Origin: Trueperaceae bacterium
GTDB taxonomy: Bacteria; Deinococcota; Deinococci; Deinococcales; Trueperaceae
Assembly (NCBI GenBank): GCA_040905465.1
Contig: JBBDRK010000051.1
Coordinates: forward strand, 3,919-26,331
Reading direction: 5' to 3'
Length of the DNA: 22,413 bases
The position numbers and the translations under genes were made by a program. The notes under the pieces were generated by a model, which was not told the DNA's origin, searched no databases, and was given only the letters and a program-made list of their open reading frames with translations. Every line of letters begins with the position of its first letter. Position 1 is the first letter of the stretch. Shown piece by piece: positions 1 through 18,678 of the stretch.

Positions 1-743
1 GTAGCAACCTTTTGATACTGGAAGGTGCGACTGTACAGCAGGATATAGAAACCGATACCGCCGGCACCGACCAATCCCAGAATCTCCGCTTCACGGATGT
101 TGAGTTCCAGCCTGAACAGGCTGTCACGTGCCAGGTCGGGCGCGATCTGACTCAATACCCCGTAGCGAATCTTTTGTAACCAGGTTGCCCCGGCGCTGTC
201 CAATGCCTCCAGGGGGCCCGGGCGCGCGTTTTCGAAGGCTTCGGCATAGAACTTGCTGAGCATTCCGGTCGAGTGGAGAGCGACAGCCAACACGCCTGGG
301 AGCGGACCGAGTCCCAGGGCACTCACGAACAGTAGGGCCAGCAGTATCACCGGTATTGCCCGGAGCGTCGTCAGGACCGATCTCAACGGCAGGTGTAACC
401 ACCTTGGCGTGAGGTTTGTGGCTGCCAGCAATCCGATGGGGAACGAGATCAAGATGCTGCAGAAGGTTCCCAGGAATGCGATCTGCAGTGTTTCAGCGAC
501 GGCCAGCATGGCGGTGTCTGCAATCGACAGGTCGGGAGGGGTCGCACGGCCGATGAAGTCGGCGACACGCGCCGGACTGCTGCGCAGTACGTCGCTTCGT
601 ACATCGAGATTGCTGATCGCCCACGCGACCAACAGCAGCAAGACGGCGAGTCCGCTATAGCGGAGAAGGCTTTGCCGCATGGTGGGCTGTGGATACGGCG
701 CTGACGCAAAACGTTCTTGCGAATCACGGTCCATGTTGCTCAC
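1..743 (-). CDS. phnE: PhnE-like ABC transporter permease (3' end truncated by window edge)
   Basis: Not in the ORF track; translated manually. GTG at 743 overlaps the phnC stop (GTGA). The frame stays open to the edge: MSNMDRD...AVAETLQIAFLGT...LRAIPVILLALLFVSALGLGPLPGVLAVALHSTGMLSKFYAEAFE...EALDSAGA...FRLELNIREAEILGLVGAGGIG. These are typical PhnE/PtxC motifs including the EAA loop. Substrate uncertain. Confidence 0.92.
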   Translation of the reverse strand, partial: MSNMDRDSQERFASAPYPQPTMRQSLLRYSGLAVLLLLVAWAISNLDVRSDVLRSSPARVADFIGRATPPDLSIADTAMLAVAETLQIAFLGTFCSILISFPIGLLAATNLTPRWLHLPLRSVLTTLRAIPVILLALLFVSALGLGPLPGVLAVALHSTGMLSKFYAEAFENARPGPLEALDSAGATWLQKIRYGVLSQIAPDLARDSLFRLELNIREAEILGLVGAGGIGFYILLYSRTFQYQKVA

Positions 744-1513
744 GGCTCCTCTGCGGCCGACTCGACCTCGCCCTCGTAGACTGCCCGAATCGCCGCTTCG
801 CTCAATGTGTCTGCTCGCTCGTCGAGGACGACGCGCCCCGCGCGCAGGCCGATGATCCGGCTGGCGTAACGGCGCGCCAGGTCGGGTTGATGCAGGCTCA
901 TCACCAGGGTAGCGGTTCGTCCCTTGCTTACTTCTATCAGCAGATTCAGGGCGTCGTCGGCGAGCGCTGGATCGAGGCTGCTGACGGGCTCGTCCGCGAG
1001 AATGATCTCGGGTTCTTGGGCCAGCACCCGGGCTATGGCCACGCGCTGCTGCTGTCCGCCGCTGAGCGTATCGCATCGCTGCGCCGCTTGATCCCGCAAA
1101 GCGACTTCATCGACCGCCTGCATGGCGATATTCTTGTCGTGCCTACTGAAGTGGCCGAACAAACTCGCCACTGCATGTGCGTGTCCTAACCGTCCCCAAA
1201 GCACATTCTCGAAAACCGTCGCCCGCTCGACCAGGTTGAAGCTCTGGAATACGAAGCCCACCCGAACGTCGTGGCGGCGGGCATTGGGCGCGGTCTTTTC
1301 GTATCCCAGAACGTGCAGGCTGCCAGTGGCCGAGTGCACATAGCCATTGATCAGGCGCAGGAGTGTCGTTTTGCCGGCACCACTGGAGCCGATGAGCGCG
1401 ACACGCTCACCCTGAGGGATGGTGAGGCGATCGATATCGAGGACCGCCTTGCCAGGATCGTCGTAGTAAACCTGGATGCCCGACAGAGCGATTGCTTCGG
1501 CAGCAGTCTGCAC
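740..1513 (-). CDS. phnC: PhnC-like ABC transporter ATP-binding protein
   Basis: Walker [11 protein letters not shown]-loop FQSFNLVER, PhnC-typical NVLWGRLG, signature [13 protein letters not shown], Walker [14 protein letters not shown]-loop SLHQ. Confidence 0.93.
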
Positions 1514-1525
1514 CTGAGGATGGTA
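1514..1525 (-). promoter_or_regulatory. Putative leaderless -10 element (TACCAT-N6-GTG) for phnC-phnE
   Basis: The minus strand reads TACCAT cctcag GTG with no Shine-Dalgarno. This matches the TANNNT-N5-7-start arrangement of leaderless genes. A small GC hairpin at 1551-1565 follows the phnD stop. Confidence 0.5.
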
Positions 1526-1566
1526 GGCGATTGCCGGTCCTTGCCCGGCCCGCCGCCCTGCGGCGT

Positions 1567-2487
1567 TTATTCGCCCTGCTCTACTTCCGCCACTAGTCCG
1601 TAACGCCGGGCAAGGTCACGGACGCCGTCGTATGCACTGTCCTCCACCCGAACGTAGCCATCCGGACTGTAGACGTACTGGAGCAGATGGCGATAGTCGG
1701 GTTCGTTGAGTTTCAGCATCGCCACCGTAAAAGTCTCGGCGAGCTCGGGTGAAAACCCTCGGCGCGCGATCACAGCGTGCGACGGAATGGGATCGGACTC
1801 GGCGATCCAACGGATCTGCTGCAGTTGGTCGGGGCGCAAGGAAACAGTGACATACTCGCTTGCTCCCGCGGCATCGACGAAACCGTTGATCACGCTTTCG
1901 ACTGCCTGCTGATAACCGCCCGCGAAGTAGACATTTCCAAAGAACTCCTGCGGATCGTCGCCGGCTTGCAGCAGCCCCGCTTGGACTAAGATATCCAACG
2001 GATAGAGATACCCGGACTCGGAAATGGGGTCCGCAAAGGCGACGCTGCGCCCCCGTAGGTCCTCGATCGTCTCGATGTCGCTGTCCGCGCGTACGAATAT
2101 GCGGCCGTGATACACGTCGTTTCCGCGGTAAACCTCTCCCAGTATCACCTCGGCACCTGCCAGTTCATGTGCCAAGACGTAAGGCAAGCCTCCCATGAAC
2201 GAGATGTCCGCGGTGCAATTACGCAGCGCTTCCACTGCCGCTGCATGGTCCAGCGCGACGAAGCCATCTACCGGTACACCCAGTTCCTGCTCGAGGTAGT
2301 CGCTGATGACTTCTACATCGTCGACCAGTTTTTCAGGGTTCTCTTGGGGAATGTATGCGAGCGTCAGCGGGCGCGAGGGGCCAACTTCAATGTCCAGACA
2401 GTCGGATGATTGAGCCGCCGCACCTGATAGTCCAACGGTTACGAGCACCACCATCAGTACCCTGGTGCATCTGCCATGTTGCTGCAT
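1567..2487 (-). CDS. PhnD/PtxB-family substrate-binding protein with atypical ligand-site residues
   Basis: Signal peptide; PhnD-fold motifs YLEQELGVPV, AVEALR, YHGRIFVRADSDIETIEDLRG, FADPISESGYLYP, SDPIPSHAVIAR; GGAGG RBS upstream; adjacent to phnC/phnE. Confidence 0.9.
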   Translation of the reverse strand: MQQHGRCTRVLMVVLVTVGLSGAAAQSSDCLDIEVGPSRPLTLAYIPQENPEKLVDDVEVISDYLEQELGVPVDGFVALDHAAAVEALRNCTADISFMGGLPYVLAHELAGAEVILGEVYRGNDVYHGRIFVRADSDIETIEDLRGRSVAFADPISESGYLYPLDILVQAGLLQAGDDPQEFFGNVYFAGGYQQAVESVINGFVDAAGASEYVTVSLRPDQLQQIRWIAESDPIPSHAVIARRGFSPELAETFTVAMLKLNEPDYRHLLQYVYSPDGYVRVEDSAYDGVRDLARRYGLVAEVEQGE

Positions 2488-2511
2488 CGTATGTCCTCCA
2501 TCCGTTACGCG

Positions 2512-4434
2512 TTATCTCAGTACAGGGCCGTACTCTTCGACCAGCTCTTCGTACTCTTCGTACCGGGATTCTGCCAGTGCCCAGTCATCCTGTTCGATCG
2601 CCGCTTTGATCTCATCCAGTTTGTCGGCGACTTCGAACACCAGCCCAGCGTTGCCGTAATCTTGCAGGCCGCTGGAATCGGCACGCAGGTCCGGAGCGAC
2701 AGTGTCGATCAGCAGGCGCGCGTGAAAGGAGTCCTGCCGCGGAATCAACATCGATCCCAATGTCGTCGCAAATGTTGTCAACTCCCCCCAAGCCAGCTGG
2801 AACGGCGTATTCTCGTCGTCGAAGACTTCATAGGGTTCATCGGCCGCCCCGACGGTCCGCAAGTACTCGGACAAGTCCGCGAGTTGCTGGTCGTCCAAAT
2901 CCATCTGGAAGCGCCTGTTCTTCCAGTTGGCTACATCTTCCAGTGTCGCCAGTGAGCCGTCGTGGAAATACGGGGATGTGTACGCGGAGTTGAGCAGAGT
3001 CGGCGTCTCAAGGTAGTTCGCGAAGCCATAGTCACCGCTCGCATCGTTGATCGAGCCGATATTCCACTGCTCGCCGTCGGCGAACAGAGAACCCTGGGTG
3101 TGGCAGGCGGCGCAGGACATGCCGCCCATCATGCCCTCGTAGGGCGTTTCAAAGATGACCTGACCACGGCGCGCGCTCTCGGACGCACGTTCGGTGAGCG
3201 TCCCATCCGCGTTCAGATAGGAGTTCGGCAGGAAATCGAACTCGAGCACATACGCAACCAACGCGTCGAGCATGAACTCGGTCGGTTCCGGACCGCCGAA
3301 CTCTTGAACGTGGACATTTCGAAGGAAGGCGCGCAGGCTGCCGAAGCGCCCGTCGCGGCCATAAGGGGCGGTGAAACGCAGCCCTCGTAGCGACGGTATG
3401 TCCAAGGAGTCGCTGCGTTGATCATTGAAGTACGGGTTGAAGAAAGCCCCATCGACGTCGACCGCCCCTGGTTGATGGCTGATGCCGGGAATGAAGAATG
3501 ACCGGTTGATGTCACTGCGGTTGTGGCAGGTCGCACAGGCAAGGCCGATGCTGCGCGCCGGCCCACCAAAAACCTCCGGTGAGTCGAACACCATGTCCCC
3601 GAAAGCTACCAGCGGGATGTCGGCTTCATCGAATCCGCGAGCCTCGAAGTTCAGCCGCAGTAGGGGCAATGGAACCTGGTCGTTGAGGTTGGTGCCGGGG
3701 GGCGTCCATACGGGGATGGCGGCATTCTCGGCGGTCACCGGGATGGGAGCAAAGCGCTGTCCGACGGGGGTGTCGGTCACGAAGCCGCCATCTTCGAAGT
3801 TGGTGATGAGGTAAGGCTCGATGACTGCCTTGGCGGCAGCGAATTGGCCCGGGTCAGCTGCTGTTCCGCCCAAGCCAACGATGCCCGCATTGCCTGCGCT
3901 GTGGGCCATATCCAGCCAGGCGCGACCCAGCGACCCGAAGGCTTCCGGGTCTGCCTCGCTGATGAAGTCCTGACCGAAGGCGCGATAGACTTGTTGGGCC
4001 GCGAGCACGTCCTGCAGTGCCGCGCCGGGTGACGAAAGCTTTTCTTCGGCCTGGCTGACATAGAATCGTACTGTTTGGGAGACGGCACGAGTCGTAGCAT
4101 CGAATAGGGCGCTAGGGTTCTGCTTGCCGATCGCCTGTTCGATAGGCACGACCAGCGTTGAGTCGAAGGCGTCCTCGACCGATTCGAGAGCTTCAAGAAC
4201 CGAAGCGAACGGGTAGCCTTCTTCCGAAATGCTCGCCGTGTACTCTCGTTCCACGAGGTCCCAATCGATCTGAGGCCCCAGGTTCAAGTAAAACGTACTG
4301 CGCAAATAGGCGGCGGCTACCGGATGCCACGGCTGTGCCGGCACAATATCTGCAAAGACGGTGTAGGTACCCATTCCCATAGCCAGGAGACAGAACAGAA
4401 TCAGTAGACGTCTCGGAGCACCTTGCCTCAGCAT
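2512..4434 (-). CDS. Secreted di-heme cytochrome c, bacterial cytochrome c peroxidase/MauG superfamily-like, with extra N- and C-terminal helical domains
   Basis: N-terminal signal peptide; two CxxCH motifs (CATCH at 3523-3537, CAACH at 3100-3114); bCcP-like motifs PSLRGLRFTAPYGRDGR and ETPTLLNSAYTSPYFHDGSLATLEDV; AAGGAAGGA RBS. Confidence 0.85.
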   Translation of the reverse strand: MLRQGAPRRLLILFCLLAMGMGTYTVFADIVPAQPWHPVAAAYLRSTFYLNLGPQIDWDLVEREYTASISEEGYPFASVLEALESVEDAFDSTLVVPIEQAIGKQNPSALFDATTRAVSQTVRFYVSQAEEKLSSPGAALQDVLAAQQVYRAFGQDFISEADPEAFGSLGRAWLDMAHSAGNAGIVGLGGTAADPGQFAAAKAVIEPYLITNFEDGGFVTDTPVGQRFAPIPVTAENAAIPVWTPPGTNLNDQVPLPLLRLNFEARGFDEADIPLVAFGDMVFDSPEVFGGPARSIGLACATCHNRSDINRSFFIPGISHQPGAVDVDGAFFNPYFNDQRSDSLDIPSLRGLRFTAPYGRDGRFGSLRAFLRNVHVQEFGGPEPTEFMLDALVAYVLEFDFLPNSYLNADGTLTERASESARRGQVIFETPYEGMMGGMSCAACHTQGSLFADGEQWNIGSINDASGDYGFANYLETPTLLNSAYTSPYFHDGSLATLEDVANWKNRRFQMDLDDQQLADLSEYLRTVGAADEPYEVFDDENTPFQLAWGELTTFATTLGSMLIPRQDSFHARLLIDTVAPDLRADSSGLQDYGNAGLVFEVADKLDEIKAAIEQDDWALAESRYEEYEELVEEYGPVLR

Positions 4435-4543
4435 CTGATTTTCCTTCCTTCCGCGCCATTGAAGAACGAGTCACGAATCAGGTACGAAGCCGCCGCGAGA
4501 ACCGAGGCGGACCTGCAGTAACGCTGGCCGGCTCGAATCCGGT

Positions 4544-5218
4544 TCATTCGATGACTTCGCCGCGTACCAGGGTGGCGAGCTCCTTGGAGATCACGACTCT
4601 TCTGCCGCCGATCTCGATGTGGAGTAACCCGCCGAGTGGTTCCCGTTCGAGTACCAGCACGCGCTGACCCGGATGAATCCCGAGCTTGGCGAGGTAGGCG
4701 AGGACGTCCGCGTCCTGGGTCCGCAGCCGTGAGAGCAGCAGGGCCGCGCCGATATCGACCGCGGTGAGGGGCGTGTTGGGTGTGTTGGGCAAGTTGCCAT
4801 CGAGGCTGGGGATGGGGTCGCCGTGCGGGTCGTGCGTCGGGTGATCGAGTAGTGCCGCCAGGCGTTCGGTAAAGCGATCCGAAATGACGTGCTCTATCAC
4901 TTCGGCCTCGTCGTGGACCTCGTCCCAGGAGTAGCCGAGATGCTCGATCATGAACGTCTCGAGCAGACGATGCCGCCGCATGAGCCGGAGGGCTTCGCGC
5001 TCGCCTTGTTCAGTGAGCCGTACGCCGCGGTAGCGTTCGTACTCGATTAGTCCGCTGTCCTGCAGGCGGGCGAGCATCGCGGAGACGGAGGGAGATGAGA
5101 CGCCGAGTACCTCAGCAATGGCGTTCGTTGAGGCGGGTTTGCTGTTGGAAACGGTCCAGATGGCCTTGAGGTAATCCCCGACCGAGGTTGAGAGGTGGGC
5201 ATCTTGAGATATAGACAT
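4544..5218 (-). CDS. mntR: DtxR/MntR-family metal-dependent transcriptional repressor with C-terminal FeoA/SH3-like domain
   Basis: GDYLKAI, HTH (IAEVLGVSSPSVSAMLARL), RRHRLLETF, VHDEAEVIEH, PTHDPHGDPIP and a FeoA-like tail. Asp in DYLK and Glu in EAEVIEH are the Mn-type ligands, rather than the Met/Cys of iron-sensing DtxR. Start moved to ATG 5218 because the listed TTG lies at the -10 element. Confidence 0.92.
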   Translation of the reverse strand: MSISQDAHLSTSVGDYLKAIWTVSNSKPASTNAIAEVLGVSSPSVSAMLARLQDSGLIEYERYRGVRLTEQGEREALRLMRRHRLLETFMIEHLGYSWDEVHDEAEVIEHVISDRFTERLAALLDHPTHDPHGDPIPSLDGNLPNTPNTPLTAVDIGAALLLSRLRTQDADVLAYLAKLGIHPGQRVLVLEREPLGGLLHIEIGGRRVVISKELATLVRGEVIE

Positions 5219-5223
5219 GTCTA
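5212..5223. promoter_or_regulatory. Perfect palindrome TAGACATGTCTA, candidate MntR/DtxR operator
   Basis: 12-bp AT-rich perfect inverted repeat covering the predicted transcription start and the ATG of the regulator. It resembles TTAG...CTAA boxes of DtxR-family repressors. Confidence 0.7.
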
Positions 5224-5229
5224 AACTCA

Positions 5230-5258
5230 ACTATAGGGGAGACTTCTATTTCTGTCAA
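5230..5258 (-). promoter_or_regulatory. Sigma70-type promoter of the mntR operon
   Basis: Minus strand TTGACA (5253-5258) - 17 nt - TATAGT (5230-5235), 11 nt before the ATG. Confidence 0.8.
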
Positions 5259-5357
5259 TGTCGGCCCGGTGCACCCGACTTCGCAGAGCATGAAAGAGGG
5301 TCGTGGCATCCTCGTGACTCCCCGGCCGGTATCTCCACCGCCTGGTTACCGGCCACT

Positions 5358-5386
5358 TTGAATCGCCGGCGACTCGCTGGTATCGT
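5358..5386 (+). promoter_or_regulatory. Putative divergent sigma70-type promoter
   Basis: TTGAAT (5358-5363) - 17 nt - TATCGT (5381-5386) with an extended TG, upstream of the ORF at 5439. Confidence 0.5.
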
Positions 5387-5438
5387 TGGGGCAACAGCTG
5401 TCTCGATCGGCGCAACTGGAAGGAGGGCAAAGGAAGTC

Positions 5439-5828
5439 GTGTTCGCACTAGCTACACCGCGATCGGGTCCTCTTCGCGAGGATCTCGTGAGGCGGCGAGC
5501 GGGCCAACTTCTAGCCGCCCTCCTCCTACTGTTGCTGTCCGGGCTGCCGCAGGTCGGCATCTCCGTCAGTAGCCTCGAACTGAGCGAAGAGCGCCTGCAG
5601 TCGGTGCCGGTCACTCGCTCGCTGCTGCTGGACAAGCTGCTTCCTGAGAGCACGTCGCTGACGCCGCCCCTGAACTCGAATTTCCCGCCGCTGCTCTCGG
5701 CGCCACCTGCTGCGCTCTCGCTACCTGTTCCAGCCAGTCACTACGCCGACAACGATACTCACAGACCGGCATGGTGGCTGCTTGACCTCATGTCCAACCT
5801 CTATCGACATCGATCCAACTACATCTAG
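5439..5828 (+). CDS. Hypothetical protein with N-terminal hydrophobic segment and Pro/Ser/Leu-rich body
   Basis: GTG after AAGGAGGG/AAGGA; RRR followed by LLAALLLLLLSG (signal or TM segment). Alternative start GTG 5487. No family recognised. Confidence 0.4.
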   Translation: MFALATPRSGPLREDLVRRRAGQLLAALLLLLLSGLPQVGISVSSLELSEERLQSVPVTRSLLLDKLLPESTSLTPPLNSNFPPLLSAPPAALSLPVPASHYADNDTHRPAWWLLDLMSNLYRHRSNYI

Positions 5829-6440: not shown

Positions 6441-6566
6441 GCCTCGGACGCCGGCTTGCCACAGCAGCCGGCTGAACAGTCTCGAAACCGGCCTCTGCTA
6501 GCCTGGAGGCCACATGTGCGGCGGAACCCTATCGGGCGTTCCGCCGCCCGTCTCGACTGCGAGGCC
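6441..6566 (+). promoter_or_regulatory. Multi-stem structured leader overlapping the antiporter RBS and start (candidate cis-regulatory RNA)
   Basis: Complementary pairs: 6441-6446/6560-6565, 6450-6456/6466-6472, 6477-6481/6555-6559, 6490-6495/6506-6511 and a 10-bp perfect stem 6518-6527/6538-6547. Confidence 0.35.
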
Positions 6567-7527
6567 AACGGGGGGCACGACGACAAGCGATCTGATAACT
6601 CTGGCGCTGGGGACGCTTCTGCTCTATCTGGGCGGCGAGGCGCTGGTGAGGAGCGCCATTCGGCTCTCTTCCCAGTGGGGAGTAAAGCCGATGGTCATCG
6701 GCCTGACGATCGTGGCTTTCGGAACGTCGGCGCCCGAGCTGTTCGCTTCTCTCCTGGCCGCCCTGCGCGGAACGACCGATCTCACCATCGGCAACGTCAT
6801 CGGCTCGAACACCGCCAATATCGGCTTGATCCTGGGCGTTACGGCGCTTATCTCGCCGATCCGAACCCACGCCATGTTCATCAGGCGTGAGGTGCCGTTC
6901 ATGCTCGGCGTGGCCGTCGTCCTGTTGGCGTTGGTTCTGACAGGCAACATCGGGCGGCTGGCCGGGGCGTCACTCCTTGGCCTGACGGCCCTTTACCTCG
7001 TGGTCCTGTTGCACGGAGGCGAGGCCCCCGATGTAGAGCAGGAGTTCAACCGGGAGTACGGCGAGGAGCGACGCGCTCCGTCGCTGCTGCCCTGGCTCGG
7101 CCTGGGTGCGGGTCTGCTGTTGTTGAGCGGCGGCGCCCACCTTCTGGTAAACGGCGCTTCCGGCATCGCCCGGTCGCTCGGGATCGCCGAGCTGACCATC
7201 GGGCTGACGATGGTGGCCGTCGGCACCAGCCTCCCGGAACTGTTCACATCGGTCGTGGCCGCGCTGCGCCAGGAGCCCGACATCGCCCTGGGAAACGTCG
7301 TCGGTTCCAATATCCTCAACGTGCTCTTCGTGCTGGGAGCCAGTGCACTGGCGCGGCCGCTACCGATAGCCGCGGGCAGCGGCGTGATCTGGGACGTGGC
7401 GGTGATGCTCGGCTTCAGCTTGCTGCTTATTCCGTTCCTGCTCACTGGACTGCGTCTCGCAAGGCGCGAGGCCGCTCTCCTGCTGGCCGCGTACGCAGGC
7501 TATGTCGTCTACCTCTTCGCGACATGA
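6514..7527 (+). CDS. Calcium/sodium antiporter (CaCA superfamily, YrbG-like)
   Basis: Two alpha-repeats, GTSAPE...GNVIGSNTAN and GTSLPE...GNVVGSNILN; about 10 TM segments; GGAGG before ATG 6514. Exact start uncertain. Confidence 0.92.
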   Translation: MCGGTLSGVPPPVSTARPTGGTTTSDLITLALGTLLLYLGGEALVRSAIRLSSQWGVKPMVIGLTIVAFGTSAPELFASLLAALRGTTDLTIGNVIGSNTANIGLILGVTALISPIRTHAMFIRREVPFMLGVAVVLLALVLTGNIGRLAGASLLGLTALYLVVLLHGGEAPDVEQEFNREYGEERRAPSLLPWLGLGAGLLLLSGGAHLLVNGASGIARSLGIAELTIGLTMVAVGTSLPELFTSVVAALRQEPDIALGNVVGSNILNVLFVLGASALARPLPIAAGSGVIWDVAVMLGFSLLLIPFLLTGLRLARREAALLLAAYAGYVVYLFAT

Positions 7528-7621
7528 CCGCTCGAGATCCTACGGCCGCTCCGCCTCCGCGCGACACTCCCCTATCGCGACTGTGTCGGCATCGGAACGT
7601 AATGGAGCGGGCGCAAGGCTG

Positions 7622-7630
7622 TGATACATT
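7622..7630 (+). promoter_or_regulatory. Putative extended -10 (TGaTACATT) for the oxidase operon
   Basis: TGnTANNNT match about 75 nt upstream of the coxB start; AGGAGG RBS before GTG 7706. Confidence 0.4.
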
Positions 7631-7705
7631 GGTTCGGTGTTTGTCGATCACTCGGACGTCGAGTAATCGACTCCGGTTTCATCCCAACCGTCCTAGGAGG
7701 AACAA

Positions 7706-8836
7706 GTGCCGGTAGTTCGTTGGTTCCGTCGGGTTGCGCCGCCGCTCGGCCTGACGTTGATGTTGGGCGGATGCGTCACCGATGGGCCTCGCTCCATGAT
7801 GCATCCCGCGGGCGAGGTAGCTCGTCAGCAGATGGACCTGTTCATGTGGACCTTCTGGCTCAGCATCGCCGTTCTGATACTGGTCGTCGGAGTGCTGACT
7901 TTCGCGATCATACGATTTCGCAGGCAGTACACCGGGGACAAGGACGCGATTCCGAACCAGGTTCACGGCAGCGTCCCTCTGGAAATAACCTGGACGATCA
8001 TCCCCGTGATAATCGTGATCCTGGTAGCCGTGCCGACAGTGCGGGCGATATTCGCGACCGAGGTGCGGGTGACGGCCGAAGAGGGCGATACGATCGTCAA
8101 CGTCACCGGATATCAGTGGTGGTGGCGCTTCGAATACCCGGAGCTGGGAATAGTCACGGCCAACGAGTTGCACATGCCGGTGGGAAGCCGACTGATACTC
8201 GACCTGGACTCGGCCGACGTGCTGCACTCGTTCTGGGTGCCGAAGTTGGCCGGTAAGCGTGACATGATCCCGAACCAGGAGAACCAGCTGTGGCTGTCGG
8301 CCGATGAGCCGGGGGTTTACTACGGCCACTGCGCCGAACTGTGCCTGGGCGCCCATGCCTACATGCGATTCCGCGTGATCGTTGACACTCAGGAGGATTA
8401 CGACGCCTGGGTCGCCGCTTTCCAGAACGCGGGCCAGCAGGCCGAAACGCCTGCGCAACCGGTTCAGGACGCTCAACTGATCGATCAAGGACGCGCCTTG
8501 TTCGCGCAGAAGGGCTGCATCGGCTGCCATACGGTAGAGGGCTTCGCCAGCTTCCCGACCGGCAACCCCGATTACCCGAACCTGACCAACTTTGGCCTGC
8601 GCAGGACGGTAGGCGCCGCGGTCCTGGAAAACAACCGCGAAAATCTTGCCCGCTGGATTCGGAATCCGCAGGCGGTAAAACCGGGCAACTACATGCCTAC
8701 GCTATGGCGAGCCGATGATCCCGCCGCCGAGGAGGAGTCCAGTGCGATCGCTGCCTACCTCCTCAGCCTCGGCAGCGAGGGTCAGGAGCCGCGTACGCAG
8801 GCCGACGCCCGAGGAGGATCCGATGGCGATAGGTAG
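7706..8836 (+). CDS. coxB: Cytochrome c oxidase subunit II with fused C-terminal cytochrome c (caa3 type)
   Basis: Lipobox-like LGGC; LEITWTIIP; GYQWWWRFEY; CuA ligands DVLHSFWVP and CAELCLGAHAYM; heme c motif CIGCH with KPGNYMP. Confidence 0.96.
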   Translation: MPVVRWFRRVAPPLGLTLMLGGCVTDGPRSMMHPAGEVARQQMDLFMWTFWLSIAVLILVVGVLTFAIIRFRRQYTGDKDAIPNQVHGSVPLEITWTIIPVIIVILVAVPTVRAIFATEVRVTAEEGDTIVNVTGYQWWWRFEYPELGIVTANELHMPVGSRLILDLDSADVLHSFWVPKLAGKRDMIPNQENQLWLSADEPGVYYGHCAELCLGAHAYMRFRVIVDTQEDYDAWVAAFQNAGQQAETPAQPVQDAQLIDQGRALFAQKGCIGCHTVEGFASFPTGNPDYPNLTNFGLRRTVGAAVLENNRENLARWIRNPQAVKPGNYMPTLWRADDPAAEEESSAIAAYLLSLGSEGQEPRTQADARGGSDGDR

Positions 8837-10739
8837 GCAACCCGCCGCAACGGGTGATTCAGGTGTTCTTTCTCGTCCGACCTGGACGACCGGTTGGGCG
8901 AGCTGGCTGACGACCGTCGACCACAAGCGGCTGGGGTTGCTCTACCTGGTCAGCAGCTTCATCTTCCTGGGATTCGGCAGCATCGAGGCCTTCCTCATCC
9001 GGCTCCAACTGGCGCGACCGGAACAGCAACTGATCTCCCCGGACGTCTTCAACCAGATGTTCACGATGCACGGGGTGACCATGGTGTTCCTGGCGATCAT
9101 GCCGATGGGCATCGGATTCGCCAACTACTTCGTGCCGCTGATGATCGGCGCTCGCGACCTGGCGTTCCCCAGGCTCAACGCCTTCGGCTACTGGGTCTAT
9201 GCGCTTGCCGGGCTCTTCCTCTACACCAGCTTCTTCCTCGGCGGAGCGCCCGACGTGGGCTGGTTCGCCTACGCTCCGCTCACCTCGCTGTCGAACAACC
9301 CCGGCAACGGAGTCGACTTCTACATGATCGCGCTGCTGGTGAGCGGTGTCGGCACGCTGGTAACGGCCATGAACCTGATCGTCACCGTCATCAACCTGCG
9401 CGCTCCGGGGATGACCTTCATGCGCGTCCCGCTGTTCGTGTGGATGATGCTGGTGACCTCGTTCCTGATCATCTTCGCGTTCCCGCCGCTTACCATCGCG
9501 CTGTTCCAGGTGATCATGGACCGCACCTTCGGCACCCTCTTCTACGTGCCCGAAGCCGGCGCGTTGCCGATCCTCTGGCAGCACCTGTTCTGGATCTTCG
9601 GCCACCCGGAGGTCTACATCATCATCCTGCCTGCGTTCGGCGTGATCTCCGAGGTCATCCCCACCTTCAGCCGCAAGCCGCTCTTCGGTTATCCGATCAT
9701 GGTTCTCTCGGGCATCTTCATCGGCTTCATGGGTTTCGCGGTGTGGAGCCACCACATGTTCACCACCGGACTCGGCCCTGTCGCCAATACGGCGTTCGCG
9801 CTGACTTCGTTCGTCATCGGCATTCCTACCGGCATCAAGGTCTTCAACTGGATCGCCACCATGTGGGGCGGACACGTGCGCTTCGCGGTGCCGATGCTGT
9901 ACGCCACGGCCTTCCTGATCACGTTCACGCTCGGCGGCATAACCGGAATAATGCTGGCCGTGCCGCCGTTCGACGCTCAGGTGCAGGACAGCTACTTCGT
10001 GGTCGCCCACTTCCACTTCGTGATGGGCGGCGGCGCCCTGCTGTCGTTCCTGGCGGCCCTGTACTACTGGTTCCCGAAGATGACCGGCCGCATGATTCCC
10101 GAGGGTCTGGGGCGCATCGCCTTCTGGCTGGTCGTACCCGGCTTCTACCTGATCTTCTGGCCACAACACTTCGCCGGGATGGTAGGCATGCCCCGGCGGG
10201 TTCAGACCTACGAGGCCAACATCGGACTCGACGCCTACAACATGATGTCGACGGCCGGGACCTTCGTCTTCGGCGCCGGCATGTTGCTGGTGCTGTTCAG
10301 CGCCATATGGGCGATTCGCAACGGCAAGATCGCCGGCGACGATCCCTGGGACGGCCGGACACTGGAGTGGGCGACCACCTCTCCCCCGCCCCACTACGAC
10401 TTCGATGTTGTGCCTGAAGTAAATGACCGGGATCCGGTCTGGCTGCAGAAGCATCCCGAACTGCTCGAGCGCCGCGATGCGATTTCCGAAGCGGCCGACC
10501 CCGAGCACATGCCTCCGGAACACGTGGAGCAGGAGTCCATCCATATCCCCGGGCAGTCGTGGTACCCGTTCATCGCAGCCCTCGGCACGTTCGTCGGCTC
10601 CTATGCGCTGCTCTACCACAACCTGTTCCTGGGCCTGTTCGCCTCGCTTATCATCTTCATCTCCTGCTACGCCTGGGCGTTCGAGGGCGTCGGGGGTCAT
10701 CACGAGCACGTAACGCCGACCGTTGGAGGTCGATCATGA
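8823..10739 (+). CDS. coxA: Cytochrome c oxidase subunit I (A1-type heme-copper oxidase)
   Basis: TVDHKRLG, FTMHGVTM, DLAFPRLN, WIFGHPEVY, WSHHMF, PTGIKVFNW, VAHFHFV, GMPRR. Start set to ATG 8823 after GGAGG. Confidence 0.97.
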   Translation: MAIGRQPAATGDSGVLSRPTWTTGWASWLTTVDHKRLGLLYLVSSFIFLGFGSIEAFLIRLQLARPEQQLISPDVFNQMFTMHGVTMVFLAIMPMGIGFANYFVPLMIGARDLAFPRLNAFGYWVYALAGLFLYTSFFLGGAPDVGWFAYAPLTSLSNNPGNGVDFYMIALLVSGVGTLVTAMNLIVTVINLRAPGMTFMRVPLFVWMMLVTSFLIIFAFPPLTIALFQVIMDRTFGTLFYVPEAGALPILWQHLFWIFGHPEVYIIILPAFGVISEVIPTFSRKPLFGYPIMVLSGIFIGFMGFAVWSHHMFTTGLGPVANTAFALTSFVIGIPTGIKVFNWIATMWGGHVRFAVPMLYATAFLITFTLGGITGIMLAVPPFDAQVQDSYFVVAHFHFVMGGGALLSFLAALYYWFPKMTGRMIPEGLGRIAFWLVVPGFYLIFWPQHFAGMVGMPRRVQTYEANIGLDAYNMMSTAGTFVFGAGMLLVLFSAIWAIRNGKIAGDDPWDGRTLEWATTSPPPHYDFDVVPEVNDRDPVWLQKHPELLERRDAISEAADPEHMPPEHVEQESIHIPGQSWYPFIAALGTFVGSYALLYHNLFLGLFASLIIFISCYAWAFEGVGGHHEHVTPTVGGRS

Positions 10740-11338
10740 GCCACACCGTGGTCGCTCCCACGCACGAGGAGTACCGCTCCACCAAGCTTCCCGACATCAA
10801 GCTGATGATGTGGATCTTCCTGGCGTCCGACTGCATGTTCTTCGGGTCGCTGATCGGCACCTACCTGGTCTACAAGGATAAGAGCCTGGTTGGTCCGTAT
10901 CCGATCGACATCCTCAACATCCCCCTGACCACCGTAAGCACCTTCGTCCTGCTGATGAGCTCGTTCCTGATGGTGCTGGCGCTGCACTCGCTGCGCAGCA
11001 ACGACATCCCCAAGTTCCGCCTGTGGACCTTCGGGGTGTGCTTCTTCGGAGCGATCTTCCTCGGTTTCCAGGTCTTCGAGTTCAGTCACTTCGTCCACGA
11101 AGGGCTGACGTTGAGCCAGAACCTCTTCGGAACTACGTTCTTCGTGCTTACCGGGACGCACGGAGTCCACGTGACCATCGGGGTGCTGATGCTGCTGTCG
11201 CTGCTGATCGCTTCGTACGTCCGCCCGGTGGCCGCCAAGGACGCCGTTTACCTGGAGGTGACCGGTCTCTACTGGCACTTCGTGGACATCGTCTGGATCG
11301 TGATCTTCACGGTCATCTACCTCGTAGAGTTCGTCTAG
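10736..11338 (+). CDS. coxC: Cytochrome c oxidase subunit III (short form)
   Basis: MWIFLASDCMFF, TFVLLMSS, FFVLTGTHGVHV, GLYWHFVDIVW. ATG 10736 after GGAGG, with ATGA overlap with coxA. Confidence 0.95.
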   Translation: MSHTVVAPTHEEYRSTKLPDIKLMMWIFLASDCMFFGSLIGTYLVYKDKSLVGPYPIDILNIPLTTVSTFVLLMSSFLMVLALHSLRSNDIPKFRLWTFGVCFFGAIFLGFQVFEFSHFVHEGLTLSQNLFGTTFFVLTGTHGVHVTIGVLMLLSLLIASYVRPVAAKDAVYLEVTGLYWHFVDIVWIVIFTVIYLVEFV

Positions 11339-11351
11339 GAGTAACGGGTCA

Positions 11352-12401
11352 ATGAGCCACAAGCACCACGGTAATCCGGTAGCGACCTACATCATCACGG
11401 CGCTGATCCTCGGGGTAATCACCTACCTGGAGTTCGCACTCGTGGAGTACGACGTCGCCTGGCTCTCGCGAGCCGCCACGATTTTCTGGCTGATCGCGCT
11501 GTCGGTCATCAAGTTCGTGATGGTGATAGCCATCTTCATGCACCTCAAGGACGACGAGAGAACCTACACCGGTTTCTTCGGCAGCGGCATGGTCATCGCC
11601 CTCGCCACCTTCCTGATTCTGCCCCTGCTGTTCACCGTCCGCGGCCTGGAGGGCCAGGCTTCGGCTGCCCCCGGCGGCGAGGCGCACGCCGAAGCGGACG
11701 CCGGCGACGCCGGCCACGCGGAGTCCGCGCTGAGCGCGGAGACCCGCGAATCGATCGAGAGCGACGGCTACAACCGGTCGCAGTCCGAGCAACTCGACAC
11801 GCCGCCGCCGATGCGGCGTTCGCTGCGCGTCGAACCGCCGGCCGCCCGCGAACCGGAAGCCGGCCTGCGCACGGGGGAGCCGGACGCACAGGCCGATGAG
11901 CCGGCCGCCGCTCCGGACGACGCCGCTCCGGCGCAAGCCGACGAGCCGCAGGCCGAGGCAGATGCGCAGCAGGCAGCGGAGGAGCCCGTTGCGGAACTCG
12001 AGTTCGACCGCGAGCTGGGCGAGCAGACTTACGTCTCGAGCTGCCAGGGTTGCCATCAGGCCGAAGGCCAGGGCATGGCGGGGGTATTCCCGCCTCTCGC
12101 CGGCAACATGCCTCGACTCCACAACGCCGAAGGCGGCCGTGAATACCTCATCGACGTGCTGCTGCACGGCCTGAGCGGCCAGATCGAGGTCAACGGCGAG
12201 ACCTACAACGGCAGCATGCCGCCGTGGACCAGCCTGTCCGACGAGCAGATCGCGGCGGTGCTCAATCACGAGCTGACCGCCTGGGGGAACGACGCCGAGC
12301 TGACCGACTTCACCCCAATCGCCGGGCAGGAGGTGGCCACGCGGCGAGGCGAAAGCCCGGGTGACCTGCTCGAGCGGCGGGCACAATTGCAAGCGCAATG
12401 A
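11352..12401 (+). CDS. Oxidase subunit IV-like 3-TM domain fused via an acidic linker to a c552-like cytochrome c
   Basis: N-terminal 3 TM segments with KFVMVIAIFMHLK (subunit IV motif); Ala/Glu/Pro/Asp-rich linker; CQGCH (12042-12056), FPPLAG, GGREYLIDVLLHGLSGQIEVNG, YNGSMP, LSDEQIAAVLNH. Confidence 0.88.
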   Translation: MSHKHHGNPVATYIITALILGVITYLEFALVEYDVAWLSRAATIFWLIALSVIKFVMVIAIFMHLKDDERTYTGFFGSGMVIALATFLILPLLFTVRGLEGQASAAPGGEAHAEADAGDAGHAESALSAETRESIESDGYNRSQSEQLDTPPPMRRSLRVEPPAAREPEAGLRTGEPDAQADEPAAAPDDAAPAQADEPQAEADAQQAAEEPVAELEFDRELGEQTYVSSCQGCHQAEGQGMAGVFPPLAGNMPRLHNAEGGREYLIDVLLHGLSGQIEVNGETYNGSMPPWTSLSDEQIAAVLNHELTAWGNDAELTDFTPIAGQEVATRRGESPGDLLERRAQLQAQ

Positions 12402-17857: not shown

Positions 17858-18622
17858 TCAGCGAGCCGTGTCGAAGAGTGACGGCTGTCGTTGCTCGTCT
17901 TCTTCGACCGGCAGCGCCGTGATCTCACGAAACTCCAACCCCTGGCGTTGCAACTGCTCGAGCGCGGGTGCCGTGATGGCGGGCGCGGCGAGAACTCCTC
18001 GCACCCTCAACCCTGTGAAACCCTCTACCCTCTCGACGTAGCGGTAGAGCTGGTGCACCGCCTCCTGGCCGGCCTTGCCGCGCTTGAGCTCAACTACCAC
18101 CAGGTTGCCCCGGCAGTCACGAGCGTAAAGGTCGATGCCCCCCACCTCGGTCGGCAACTCTCGATCCAGCAGCGTGAGGCCCTCCTCGATCAGTTCGGGT
18201 CGGCGTGCCAACGCCCGCTGCATCTCGGCCTCCGATCCCACCAGCATGAAACCCGGGGTCTCCCGCAGCACCAGCGCCTGAGCCAGGACCGGCCGCAGGA
18301 ACGCGACTCGCACGAACTCGGCCGGCGTGAAACGCTCCGAGTAGAGCACGGCGGAGCCGTCTTCCAGAAGGACCCGCACGGTGTCGCTCTGGGGCTGCCA
18401 GTTCACCGGCTTCACGCCGCGATGCCCGTGCACCTGCAGGCTTCCGTCGCGTTTGGCCATCACCACGTAGTCACCGGCTTCGGCCACGCTCGCGGCACGC
18501 CCGTGGTAGAGCACCTCGCACTCGCCCACCACCTGCACGAGGCAGTCACCGGAGCGCAGGTGCTGGTCGAGGAATTCGCACAACTCGGCCGACGTCGGTT
18601 CGTGGATGAGGGCGCGCAGCAC
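17858..18622 (-). CDS. nucS: Endonuclease NucS/EndoMS (mismatch-specific)
   Basis: CEVLYHGRA, KRDGSLQVH, KPVNWQP, GSEAEMQ, RELPTEVGGIDLYARD, VVVELKR, QLYRYV, RGVLAAP. Start set to GTG 18622, since the track's 18637 start lies upstream of the -10. Confidence 0.93.
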   Translation of the reverse strand: MLRALIHEPTSAELCEFLDQHLRSGDCLVQVVGECEVLYHGRAASVAEAGDYVVMAKRDGSLQVHGHRGVKPVNWQPQSDTVRVLLEDGSAVLYSERFTPAEFVRVAFLRPVLAQALVLRETPGFMLVGSEAEMQRALARRPELIEEGLTLLDRELPTEVGGIDLYARDCRGNLVVVELKRGKAGQEAVHQLYRYVERVEGFTGLRVRGVLAAPAITAPALEQLQRQGLEFREITALPVEEDEQRQPSLFDTAR

Positions 18623-18627
18623 AGGAG

Positions 18628-18636
18628 AGGTTACCA
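18628..18636 (-). promoter_or_regulatory. Extended -10 (TGgTAACCT) for leaderless nucS
   Basis: The minus strand reads TGG TAACCT ctcct GTG. Confidence 0.55.
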
Positions 18637-18678
18637 CCCGGCCAGCGGCCGGTCAGTCCGCTCGGCGGACGCCTGCGG

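Follow-up and report, generated by a model that had tools for sequence, protein, structure and literature searches.

To our knowledge, the bacterial manganese importers described so far (Nramp/MntH, MntABC/SitABCD, and MntX) import Mn(II) and do not alter the metal chemically. Much of the manganese in soils, sediments, and seawater is a Mn(III)-ligand complex or an oxide. Hard, often trivalent cations are bound by sets of Tyr, His, and Glu residues in ferric binding proteins (FbpA) and in transferrins, and some di-heme enzymes act on a partner protein: MauG acts on pre-methylamine dehydrogenase, and MbnH on MbnP, a pair that also serves copper acquisition. The 22,413-nucleotide (nt) stretch of Trueperaceae DNA analyzed here (the window; positions 3919-26331 of contig C51, in a host assembly of 3.53 Mb and 81 contigs that is 95% complete) carries an operon in which the gene for an MntR-family regulator precedes genes for a secreted di-heme protein, a PhnD-like substrate-binding protein (SBP), a PhnC-type ATPase, and a PhnE-type permease. 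The host most likely belongs to Trueperaceae: of the cytochrome oxidase subunit I homologs with an organism name, all except one ('soil metagenome') are from Trueperaceae or Deinococcales, and the best is 86% identical. On balance, we lean toward reading the last four genes as a cassette for a manganese-repressed, redox-coupled importer of manganese, possibly in the form of Mn(III), alone or together with an anion, and this four-gene unit probably represents an undescribed manganese uptake route. The gene order, the type of regulator, the operator, the SBP pocket, and the docking of the di-heme protein on the SBP were all worked out in silico. In the full-text literature (open-access papers and bioRxiv), no description of the MntR/di-heme/PhnDCE gene combination was found.

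The preliminary description of this DNA had seen five co-oriented genes behind one promoter with a palindromic operator, and the open reading frames (ORFs), their domains, a promoter scan, and the palindrome itself confirm that layout. Five ORFs on the minus strand follow each other head to tail within bases 1-5258, in the order mntR, di-heme gene, PhnD-like gene, phnC, and phnE, with spacers of 109, 24, 53, and about 2 nt (Table 1). In a scan of one genome per species, relatives of the di-heme gene occur at 270 loci, of which the best-scoring 80 were fetched. The SBP gene lies directly 3' of the di-heme gene in 71 of the 72 loci with at least 1 kb of downstream sequence, and, where the downstream DNA suffices, phnC comes next in 68 of 69 loci and phnE in 65 of 66. 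The sole exception to this colinearity, L050, has a 43-residue fragment of an SBP gene after the di-heme gene; L050 and L072 are degenerate copies, the latter with a prematurely ending di-heme gene that runs up against a piece of phnE. The cassette is present in about ten phyla (Chloroflexota, Deinococcota, Methylomirabilales, Desulfobacterota, Dadabacteria, Spirochaetia, Acidobacteriota, and Alpha- and Gammaproteobacteria), including cultured, non-pathogenic strains of the Roseobacter group (Marinovum, Sulfitobacter, Planktotalea, Roseovarius, and Paracoccus isoporae). Among 8000 candidates scored, 1117 are homologs of the di-heme protein at E <=0.001. The top 120 are all full-length (593-752 residues, 48-79% identity) and include no fusion forms, the class of longer proteins not having been searched. 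One homolog of 752 residues carries a FeoA domain and is probably a merged call with a neighboring regulator.

The preliminary description had expected metal regulators, and not genes for phosphonate or phosphite catabolism, near such clusters, and the neighborhood check that it proposed agrees with this. An MntR-family gene adjoins the cassette in 43 of the 74 loci with enough upstream DNA, these DtxR/MntR-family regulators are accompanied by a conserved operator of the MntR type, and none of the 105 ORFs flanking 21 diverse loci encodes a carbon-phosphorus (C-P) lyase, a phosphite dehydrogenase, or a related phn/ptx catabolic function. The lack of C-P lyase genes seen in the first part of the window extends to the whole 95%-complete genome, in which PhnJ was not found; ptxD was not searched by itself. 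The suggested link to the manganese-phosphate antioxidants of Deinococcota has been weakened. The di-heme gene is present in only 4 of 301 sampled Deinococcota genomes, all four in one family, and is absent from both other genomes of the window's genus; the protein encoded in the window is 68-70% identical to copies from Chloroflexota versus 58% to the other Trueperaceae copies. The cassette looks like a patchy, transferred accessory unit, and in L034, a member of the Rhodobacterales, it sits on a 114-kb plasmid.

In bases 1-5600 of the window, a consensus scan finds a single promoter-like site, directly before mntR. One site against a mean of 1.4 in shuffled sequences is not significant as a number; what counts is its placement. 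The three terminator-like sites in the same interval are at chance level: two are inside genes on the operon strand, and the third is in the gap between the SBP gene and phnC on the other strand. Because the ATG of mntR starts 12 nt past the -10 hexamer, the operon transcript is probably leaderless or nearly so. A 27-nt imperfect palindrome is centered on this ATG and covers the expected transcription start as well as the start codon. Its perfect core, TAGACATGTCTA, occurs once in the 3.53-Mb genome with up to one mismatch allowed.

The candidate operator matches 11 of the 12 positions of a box, TTAG(A/C)C-N2-G(G/T)CTAA, that recurs at other copies of the cassette. At least 11 positions match in all 38 divergent loci, where the box lies 20-56 nt before the di-heme gene, and 10-11 positions match before mntR in five of the six co-oriented loci. 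Matches of at least 11 positions also occur in 6 of the 36 loci without an adjacent mntR, and the background is 19 of 1600 random 300-nt segments taken from the same loci. The half-site resembles the enterobacterial MntR box quoted in PMC1698941, and the box also resembles the alphaproteobacterial MntR sites of Table S5 in that paper. Mur-box-like sites are located 49-83 nt upstream in four alphaproteobacterial loci without an adjacent mntR (L027, L029, L041, and L059); they match at least 14 of 19 positions of a consensus compiled from Table S4 of that paper, with a background of 5 of 1600 segments. These matches suggest that two subtypes of manganese repressor, and in some lineages Mur-type sites instead, accompany the same cassette. 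In three proteobacterial loci (L050, L054, and L057), the MntR box is replaced by a perfect palindrome of 20-22 nt, (C)ATGTGAACAGCTGTTCACAT(G), some 30-60 nt upstream of the di-heme gene, which points to yet another regulator. The mntR of Mesorhizobium sp. BNC1 is called 'enigmatic' in PMC1698941, its sole predicted site lying upstream of mntR itself; by analogy with the loci described here, a divergent cassette beside this gene would explain that site.

The regulator itself has the domains Fe_dep_repress (PF01325, score 64.4), Fe_dep_repr_C (PF02742, 112.9), and FeoA (PF04023, 53.8). Among solved relatives it scores best against 5zr4 (176 bits), a 226-residue regulator that we take to be MntR of M. 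tuberculosis, followed by 8pvt (146), ScaR (117), and SloR (116), with lower scores against IdeR (93) and DtxR (73). Its DYLK and HDEAEVIEH motifs align to those of manganese regulators; at the positions where MntR subtypes carry Asp/Glu, DtxR and IdeR presumably have Met/Cys. The protein is below the cut-offs of the curated equivalog models NF047407 (the NCBIfam Thermus-type MntR; 210.3 versus 350) and NF008273 (77.3 versus 153). The co-oriented, three-domain subtype seen in the window is found in six loci (Desulfobacterota, Dadabacteria, and one Caldilineaceae), and a divergently transcribed, two-domain subtype in 37 loci of Alpha- and Gammaproteobacteria. The two-domain regulator of the Rhodobacterales scores 127 bits against E. 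coli MntR (2h09) and keeps the D-x-x-E and DAEGIEHH motifs, aligned to B. subtilis MntR, which we take to be manganese-ligand positions. The cassette-linked regulators thus appear to be of the manganese type and not of the iron type, the effector being suggested by homology. In the loci from Desulfobacterota and Dadabacteria, a conserved co-oriented ORF of about 270-290 residues without a Pfam match is located directly upstream of mntR and could be an additional, sixth component of the unit in these groups. The window's genome encodes two further DtxR-family regulators, neither of which adjoins the ZnuA/TroA-type ATP-binding cassette (ABC) systems on contigs C15 and C35.

The SBP is a clear member of its family (PF12974, 204 bits versus a cut-off of 27; TIGR01098, 174.2 versus 112.05). 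It remains below the cut-off of the curated PhnD equivalog (TIGR03431, 171.5 versus 261.1), and the proteins of solved structure closest to it are PtxB and HtxB, the PtxB structures being 5lv1, 5o2j, and 5jvb. According to PMC5700983, Te_PtxB holds phosphite by Y55, Y100, S130, T131, S132, and H160, with Y208 as the cap and D22 as its partner. In the HMMER alignment, these positions correspond, in the same order, to H81, Y126, S156, E157, S158, Y192, H237, and Q48 of the window SBP. Of the eight ligand and cap residues, four are replaced (Y55H, T131E, H160Y, and Y208H), as is the cap partner (D22Q), and the ligands Y100, S130, and S132 are kept as Y126, S156, and S158. The mapped residues are 96-100% conserved in 73 SBPs encoded in cassettes. 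The window's genome encodes two other strong PF12974 proteins, one on C36 with Y/Y/S-T-S/H at the pocket positions and one on C49 with N/Y/S-N-S/H. Since these paralogs lack the His/Tyr/Glu/Tyr/His set, the change in the pocket is specific to the cassette. The comparison suggests a pocket remodeled away from the oxyanion set, with two His, two Tyr, and one Glu, and with two Ser kept. In PtxB the side chains converge on a single small ion, so that the new His, Tyr, and Glu residues would together surround a bound ion closely; a synergistic anion could be held by the serines that are kept.

The di-heme protein is also predicted to dock on the SBP. Residues 30-640 of the di-heme protein were co-folded with the mature SBP and two hemes, giving ipSAE values of 0.74, 0.71, and 0.70, with 0.00 for all three controls. 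In the benchmark, 116 of 157 solved complexes attain this mark, as do 2 of 215 mismatched pairs; these counts are only a rough guide here, as custom alignments were used and hemes were included. The runs share at least 83% of their contacts, and the partner has a predicted local distance difference test (pLDDT) score of at least 83. The predicted interface comprises residues 140-191 and 584-596 of the di-heme protein and D80-A82, D153-I155, Y187-G190, and Q193-Q194 of the SBP. Because these SBP segments flank the pocket residues, the helical domains of the di-heme protein would cap the mouth of the cleft. The co-folding result supports, but does not show, binding of the di-heme protein to the SBP through its helical N- and C-terminal domains.

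From these results we infer which metal is handled, that it is imported, and what redox step it undergoes and in which direction, as follows. When Mn(II) is sufficient, MntR would bind the palindrome over the transcription start and shut off mntR, the di-heme gene, and phnDCE; when manganese is scarce, the autoregulated operon would be expressed. The secreted di-heme enzyme would then use its helical N- and C-terminal domains to dock at the mouth of the SBP cleft and perform a redox step on the metal, most likely the oxidation of Mn(II) to Mn(III) or, alternatively, the reduction or solubilization of oxidized manganese. The former oxyanion pocket of the SBP would capture the ion, perhaps together with phosphate or carbonate as a synergistic anion, and the SBP would pass the ion on to the ABC importer of the PhnE/PhnC type. 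A pocket rich in Tyr and the oxidizing chemistry of the enzyme family would both suit oxidation to Mn(III), but in which direction the redox step runs is a guess. The preliminary description had proposed a redox-coupled importer of manganese or iron built on a phosphonate-transporter scaffold. This remains the best reading, narrowed to manganese and extended by the regulator, pocket, and docking predictions, and its Deinococcota part has been weakened. More tentatively, and with clear doubt on our side, the cassette may be the first dedicated bacterial pathway for the uptake of oxidized manganese, in which Mn(II) is oxidized or ligand-bound Mn(III) is captured at the mouth of the SBP, and the Mn(III), perhaps with a synergistic phosphate, is held by a Tyr2-His2-Glu pocket derived from a phosphite/phosphonate site; alternatively, the enzyme would install a new protein-derived ligand in the SBP.

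Several observations weigh against manganese import by the cassette, or limit how far the evidence for it reaches. The pocket map relies on pairwise HMMER alignments at low identity, and the idea that a Tyr/His/Glu pocket would suit a trivalent metal is drawn by analogy with FbpA and transferrin. The counts given above come from the best 80 of 270 loci, about half of which are closely related Rhodobacterales and thus not independent, so that the raw numbers make the loci look more independent than they are; the range of phyla is free of this bias. An adjacent regulator is lacking in 31 of the 74 loci, most of which show no clear box. The helical N-domain of the di-heme protein, modeled alone with a pLDDT of 92.9, has no significant fold match (Foldseek, nothing at or below 0.001). 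Its top Foldseek rows, EfeO (7wgu, E 0.24) and EfeM (7q1g, E 1.2), are non-significant, and the best VIA-align match (5xa5; Z 7.1, root-mean-square deviation (rmsd) 4.5 Å, 147 residues aligned) is, like that to imelysin 3n8u (Z 5.7, rmsd 5.0 Å, 131 aligned), within the noise for helical models. In the Rhodobacterales (L034-L083) and in L004 and L010, the cassette has metal efflux and resistance genes as neighbors, which fits metal handling and does not single out manganese; these neighborhoods hold genes for a P-type ATPase, CDF exporters, SCO1/SenC, DUF411, Lnt, LspA, and YkuD, and in L004 also for ArsR, a CopZ-like protein, MerR, and MerB. ZnuA/SitA-family binding proteins are encoded in the window's genome (two) and in five Rhodobacterales genomes (2-3 per genome), so the cassette would be an additional manganese route and not the only one. 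That it might be the sole candidate manganese importer is ruled out by these systems in all six genomes, despite the fact that Nramp was found neither in the window's genome nor in the five from Rhodobacterales.

The box, too, is private to the cassette in the window's genome, where the core is unique, and essentially so in the five Rhodobacterales genomes, and this likewise weakens the case. A genome-wide search with the operator gave no tie to classical manganese transporters through a shared regulon. As the box is private to the cassette, the regulator is a dedicated one, its effector inferred from homology alone. The window's genome has four other matches to 11-12 of the 12 positions: three are close to tctC, to a gene for an aldehyde dehydrogenase, and to a fragment of an integrase, and the fourth is on contig C7. 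The five Rhodobacterales genomes have the box at the cassette and, in three of the five, one extra site with one mismatch; a control with the reversed pattern gives more (5-23). The perfect box in the window's genome, TTAGCCCAGGCTAA, is located 6 nt before the tctC-tctB-tctA operon for a tripartite tricarboxylate transporter and could be due to chance or mark a second target, such as metal-citrate uptake.

The architecture of the di-heme protein bears on what the enzyme would do. A signal/anchor helix is followed by a helical N-domain of about 225-250 residues, a di-heme core (residues ~260-537), and a four-helix bundle (538-640). C300, C303, H304, C441, C444, and H445 are invariant in 62 homologs; the match to PF03150 covers residues 424-503 only. 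In an AlphaFold2 model (mean pLDDT 86.3, predicted template-modeling score 0.83), the core resembles bacterial di-heme peroxidases, MauG, MbnH-like proteins, BthA, and the gamma subunit of hydrazine synthase (VIA-align Z 12.3-14.0, rmsd 2.9-4.1 Å, 194-224 residues aligned, 19-28% identity). The individual matches are the peroxidase 3o5c (Z 14.0, rmsd 3.0 Å, 214 aligned), MauG 3l4m (13.7, 3.3 Å, 212), 5c2v_C (13.6, 2.9 Å, 194), the MbnH-like 6e1c (13.1, 3.8 Å, 218), and BthA 6v59 (12.3, 4.1 Å, 224). Foldseek is weak on the core, its top two rows having E values of 1.3e-4 to 8e-4. Sequence and model together suggest that the core belongs to the bacterial cytochrome c peroxidase (bCCP)/MauG superfamily. 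Curated models score far below their cut-offs (TIGR03791, 42.9 versus 443.85; TIGR04039, 48.8 versus 362.85), and the best NCBIfam match is the MbnH family (48.8 versus 362.85). In canonical peroxidases, the Met that presumably ligates the electron-transfer heme lies 14 residues past the His of PYFHDG, judging by an alignment with the sequences of N. europaea and S. oneidensis. This position corresponds to K505 of the window's protein and is not conserved in the family, where F prevails; the adjacent W504 is invariant. Y489 is also invariant and is part of the PYFHDG motif. We dropped Y489 as a MauG-like Tyr heme ligand, since HMMER alignments show that the motif is common to Met-ligated peroxidases too. 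The C-terminal bundle matches PsbQ/CyanoQ and cytochrome b562-type bundles with Z 11-13 (1nze: Z 13.3, rmsd 2.6 Å, 103 aligned); such values are common for helical bundles, and no function was drawn from them.

An alternative explanation, which we think unlikely but take seriously, is that the di-heme protein is a maturation enzyme that oxidatively modifies a pocket residue of the SBP, such as a Tyr or His, into a protein-derived metal ligand, the modified SBP then binding manganese for import. The core matches MauG, MbnH-like proteins, and BthA about as well as it does peroxidases, the best NCBIfam match is MbnH, though far below the cut-off, the Met-ligand position of peroxidases is not conserved, the di-heme and SBP genes are strictly adjacent, and docking is predicted at the mouth of the cleft beside H81 and Y192. 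However, no modified residue is visible from the sequence, the predicted interface is formed by the helical domains and not by the heme core, and a catalytic maturase would not have to accompany its target singly in each operon, although MbnH and MbnP are kept as such a pair. A redox step on manganese at the SBP is the role we prefer for the enzyme.

A second alternative is that the cassette imports ferric iron or another hard cation, with a manganese-type regulator that senses a different metal or cross-regulates. Ferric binding proteins use a Tyr/Tyr/His/Glu set, the top, non-significant Foldseek rows of the N-domain come from an iron uptake system (EfeO/EfeM), and some loci have neighboring genes that handle other metals. 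We consider this improbable, however, as both regulator subtypes are closest to characterized manganese sensors, with Asp/Glu where DtxR and IdeR have Met/Cys, and as, in a search that covered MntR and Mur boxes but no Fur, IdeR, or Irr elements, Mur-box-like sites replace the MntR box in four alphaproteobacterial loci.

Hardly better placed, and if anything slightly less credible, is a manganese-sparing stress response, in which a heme peroxidase replaces manganese-dependent antioxidant defense and the transporter imports an unrelated small anion. The core is in the bacterial cytochrome c peroxidase superfamily, and metal regulons are generally known to include, in many cases, enzymes that dispense with the scarce metal. 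This explanation leaves the strict colinearity of four genes across phyla, the remodeled pocket, and the predicted docking of the enzyme on the SBP without a reason. Finally, we give very little credence to a plain phosphonate, phosphite, or phosphate ABC importer next to a cytochrome and a regulator by chance: PF12974, TIGR01098, and TIGR01097 are above their cut-offs, homologs are named for phosphonate transport, and three of the six PtxB ligands are kept (Y126, S156, and S158), but the PhnD equivalog score is too low (171.5 versus 261.1), T131, H160, Y55, and the cap Tyr are all replaced by residues that are 96-100% conserved, canonical paralogs are encoded elsewhere in the same genome, PhnJ was not found in that genome and P-catabolic functions in none of the 105 flanking ORFs, and the operator is of the MntR type and not a Pho box.

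Table 1. Features of the window and of related loci. Positions refer to the window unless a locus or contig is named.
Feature	Position	Strand	Evidence or remark
Sigma-70-type promoter: TTGACA (5258-5253), 17-nt spacer, TATAGT (5235-5230)	5230-5258	-	Consensus match 11/12
Candidate MntR operator, imperfect palindrome TTGAGtTTAGACA/TGTCTAtaTCTCAA with perfect core TAGACATGTCTA at 5223-5212	5204-5230	none	11/12 to box
mntR, three-domain DtxR-family metalloregulator, apparently Mn type, 224 aa	4544-5218	-	PF01325, PF02742, PF04023
Secreted di-heme protein, 640 aa	2512-4434	-	Two CxxCH; PF03150 45.8 bits vs cut-off 25.6
Heme-binding motif 1, CATCH (C300-H304)	3523-3537	-	Translation; invariance in 62 homologs
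Heme-binding motif 2, CAACH (C441-H445)	3100-3114	-	Translation; invariance in 62 homologs
PhnD/PtxB-fold SBP; predicted pocket H81, Y126, S156-E157-S158, Y192, H237, Q48	1567-2487	-	PF12974 204 bits
phnC, PhnC-type ABC ATPase	740-1513	-	PF00005 115.5; TIGR02315 250.9, just under cut-off 266.1
phnE, PhnE-type permease, 3' end cut by window start and scaffold gap	3-737	-	TIGR01097 241.9 vs cut-off 216.7
N run (scaffold gap), contig C51	L003:3820-3918		Just before window base 1
Na/Ca-exchanger-family gene and caa3-type cytochrome c oxidase operon, upstream of the mntR operon	6514-12401	opposite to operon	COX2 with cytochrome c domain, COX1, COX3, COX4 fused to cytochrome c
NucS endonuclease gene	17858-18637
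ORF upstream of mntR	L013:6321-7121
ORF upstream of mntR	L014:6141-7022
ORF upstream of mntR	L015:6629-7459
ORF upstream of mntR	L016:6340-7149
ORF upstream of mntR	L017:4638-5447
Further DtxR-family regulator, window's genome	C43:91591-92637
Further DtxR-family regulator, window's genome	C68:8-217
Perfect box before tctC-tctB-tctA, window's genome	C16:39791-39804

The permease gene is incomplete in the assembly: its match to TIGR01097 spans profile positions 3-227 of 252, and the scaffold gap breaks it about 25 codons before the expected end. The genes beyond the gap are unrelated and encode two membrane proteins, one of 165 residues and one resembling ferric reductases, as well as a two-component system of response regulator and histidine kinase.

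If our interpretation is correct, a manganese-regulated heme oxidoreductase and a repurposed oxyanion transporter would constitute a new manganese route, linking manganese nutrition to manganese redox cycling in soils, sediments, and seawater. Uptake of oxidized manganese would parallel ferroxidase-coupled iron uptake, and it would have been spread by gene transfer across at least ten phyla, including to marine Roseobacters. It would also correct a systematic misannotation. The preliminary description had anticipated a label of phosphonate transport, and homologs are indeed named 'phosphonate transport system substrate-binding protein'. Every named homolog that we met is called either a phosphonate-binding protein or a cytochrome c peroxidase, so in metagenome surveys these genes are counted toward phosphorus scavenging or peroxide defense.

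The cassette shares the SBP fold family (PF12974), the PhnC-type ATPase, the PhnE-type permease, and the D-C-E gene order with PhnCDE, PtxABC, and HtxBCDE. In contrast to these systems, it always has a di-heme gene immediately before the SBP gene, operators of the MntR or Mur kind instead of Pho control, no phn/ptx catabolic genes among those found, and an SBP with Y55H, T131E, H160Y, Y208H, and D22Q relative to the Te_PtxB residues of PMC5700983. The FbpABC ferric importers are type I ABC systems whose SBP, a class II protein related to anion binders, holds a hard cation by Tyr/His/Glu and a synergistic anion, and the cassette may work in this manner; however, its regulator appears to be of the manganese type, and FbpABC has no dedicated heme enzyme as a partner.

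In EfeUOB and Fet3-Ftr1, a heme or copper oxidoreductase outside the cytoplasm works with a permease, which couples conversion of the metal directly to its capture, as may also be the case here. The enzyme of the cassette is instead of the di-heme bCCP/MauG kind and not a DyP or multicopper oxidase, its transporter is an SBP-dependent ABC system and not Ftr1/EfeU, and its regulator appears to be of the manganese type. With MauG-preMADH and MbnH-MbnP the cassette shares the di-heme superfamily and a partner encoded next door, which is here predicted to dock. The partner, however, is a PhnD-fold SBP that would feed an ABC importer and not MbnP or a dehydrogenase, and the enzyme has extra helical domains at its N- and C-termini (about 250 and 100 residues) that form the predicted interface.

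Among the manganese systems, MntH, MntABC/SitABCD, and MntX have the same kinds of repressor and box before an uptake system. The binding protein of MntABC/SitABCD is of the cluster A-I ZnuA/TroA type, whereas that of the cassette has the PhnD fold; none of these systems has a redox partner, and genomes with the cassette carry ZnuA/SitA-family systems as well. The cassette would thus combine elements of known kinds, namely metal import by an ABC transporter, oxidase-coupled uptake, and partner enzymes of the MauG type.

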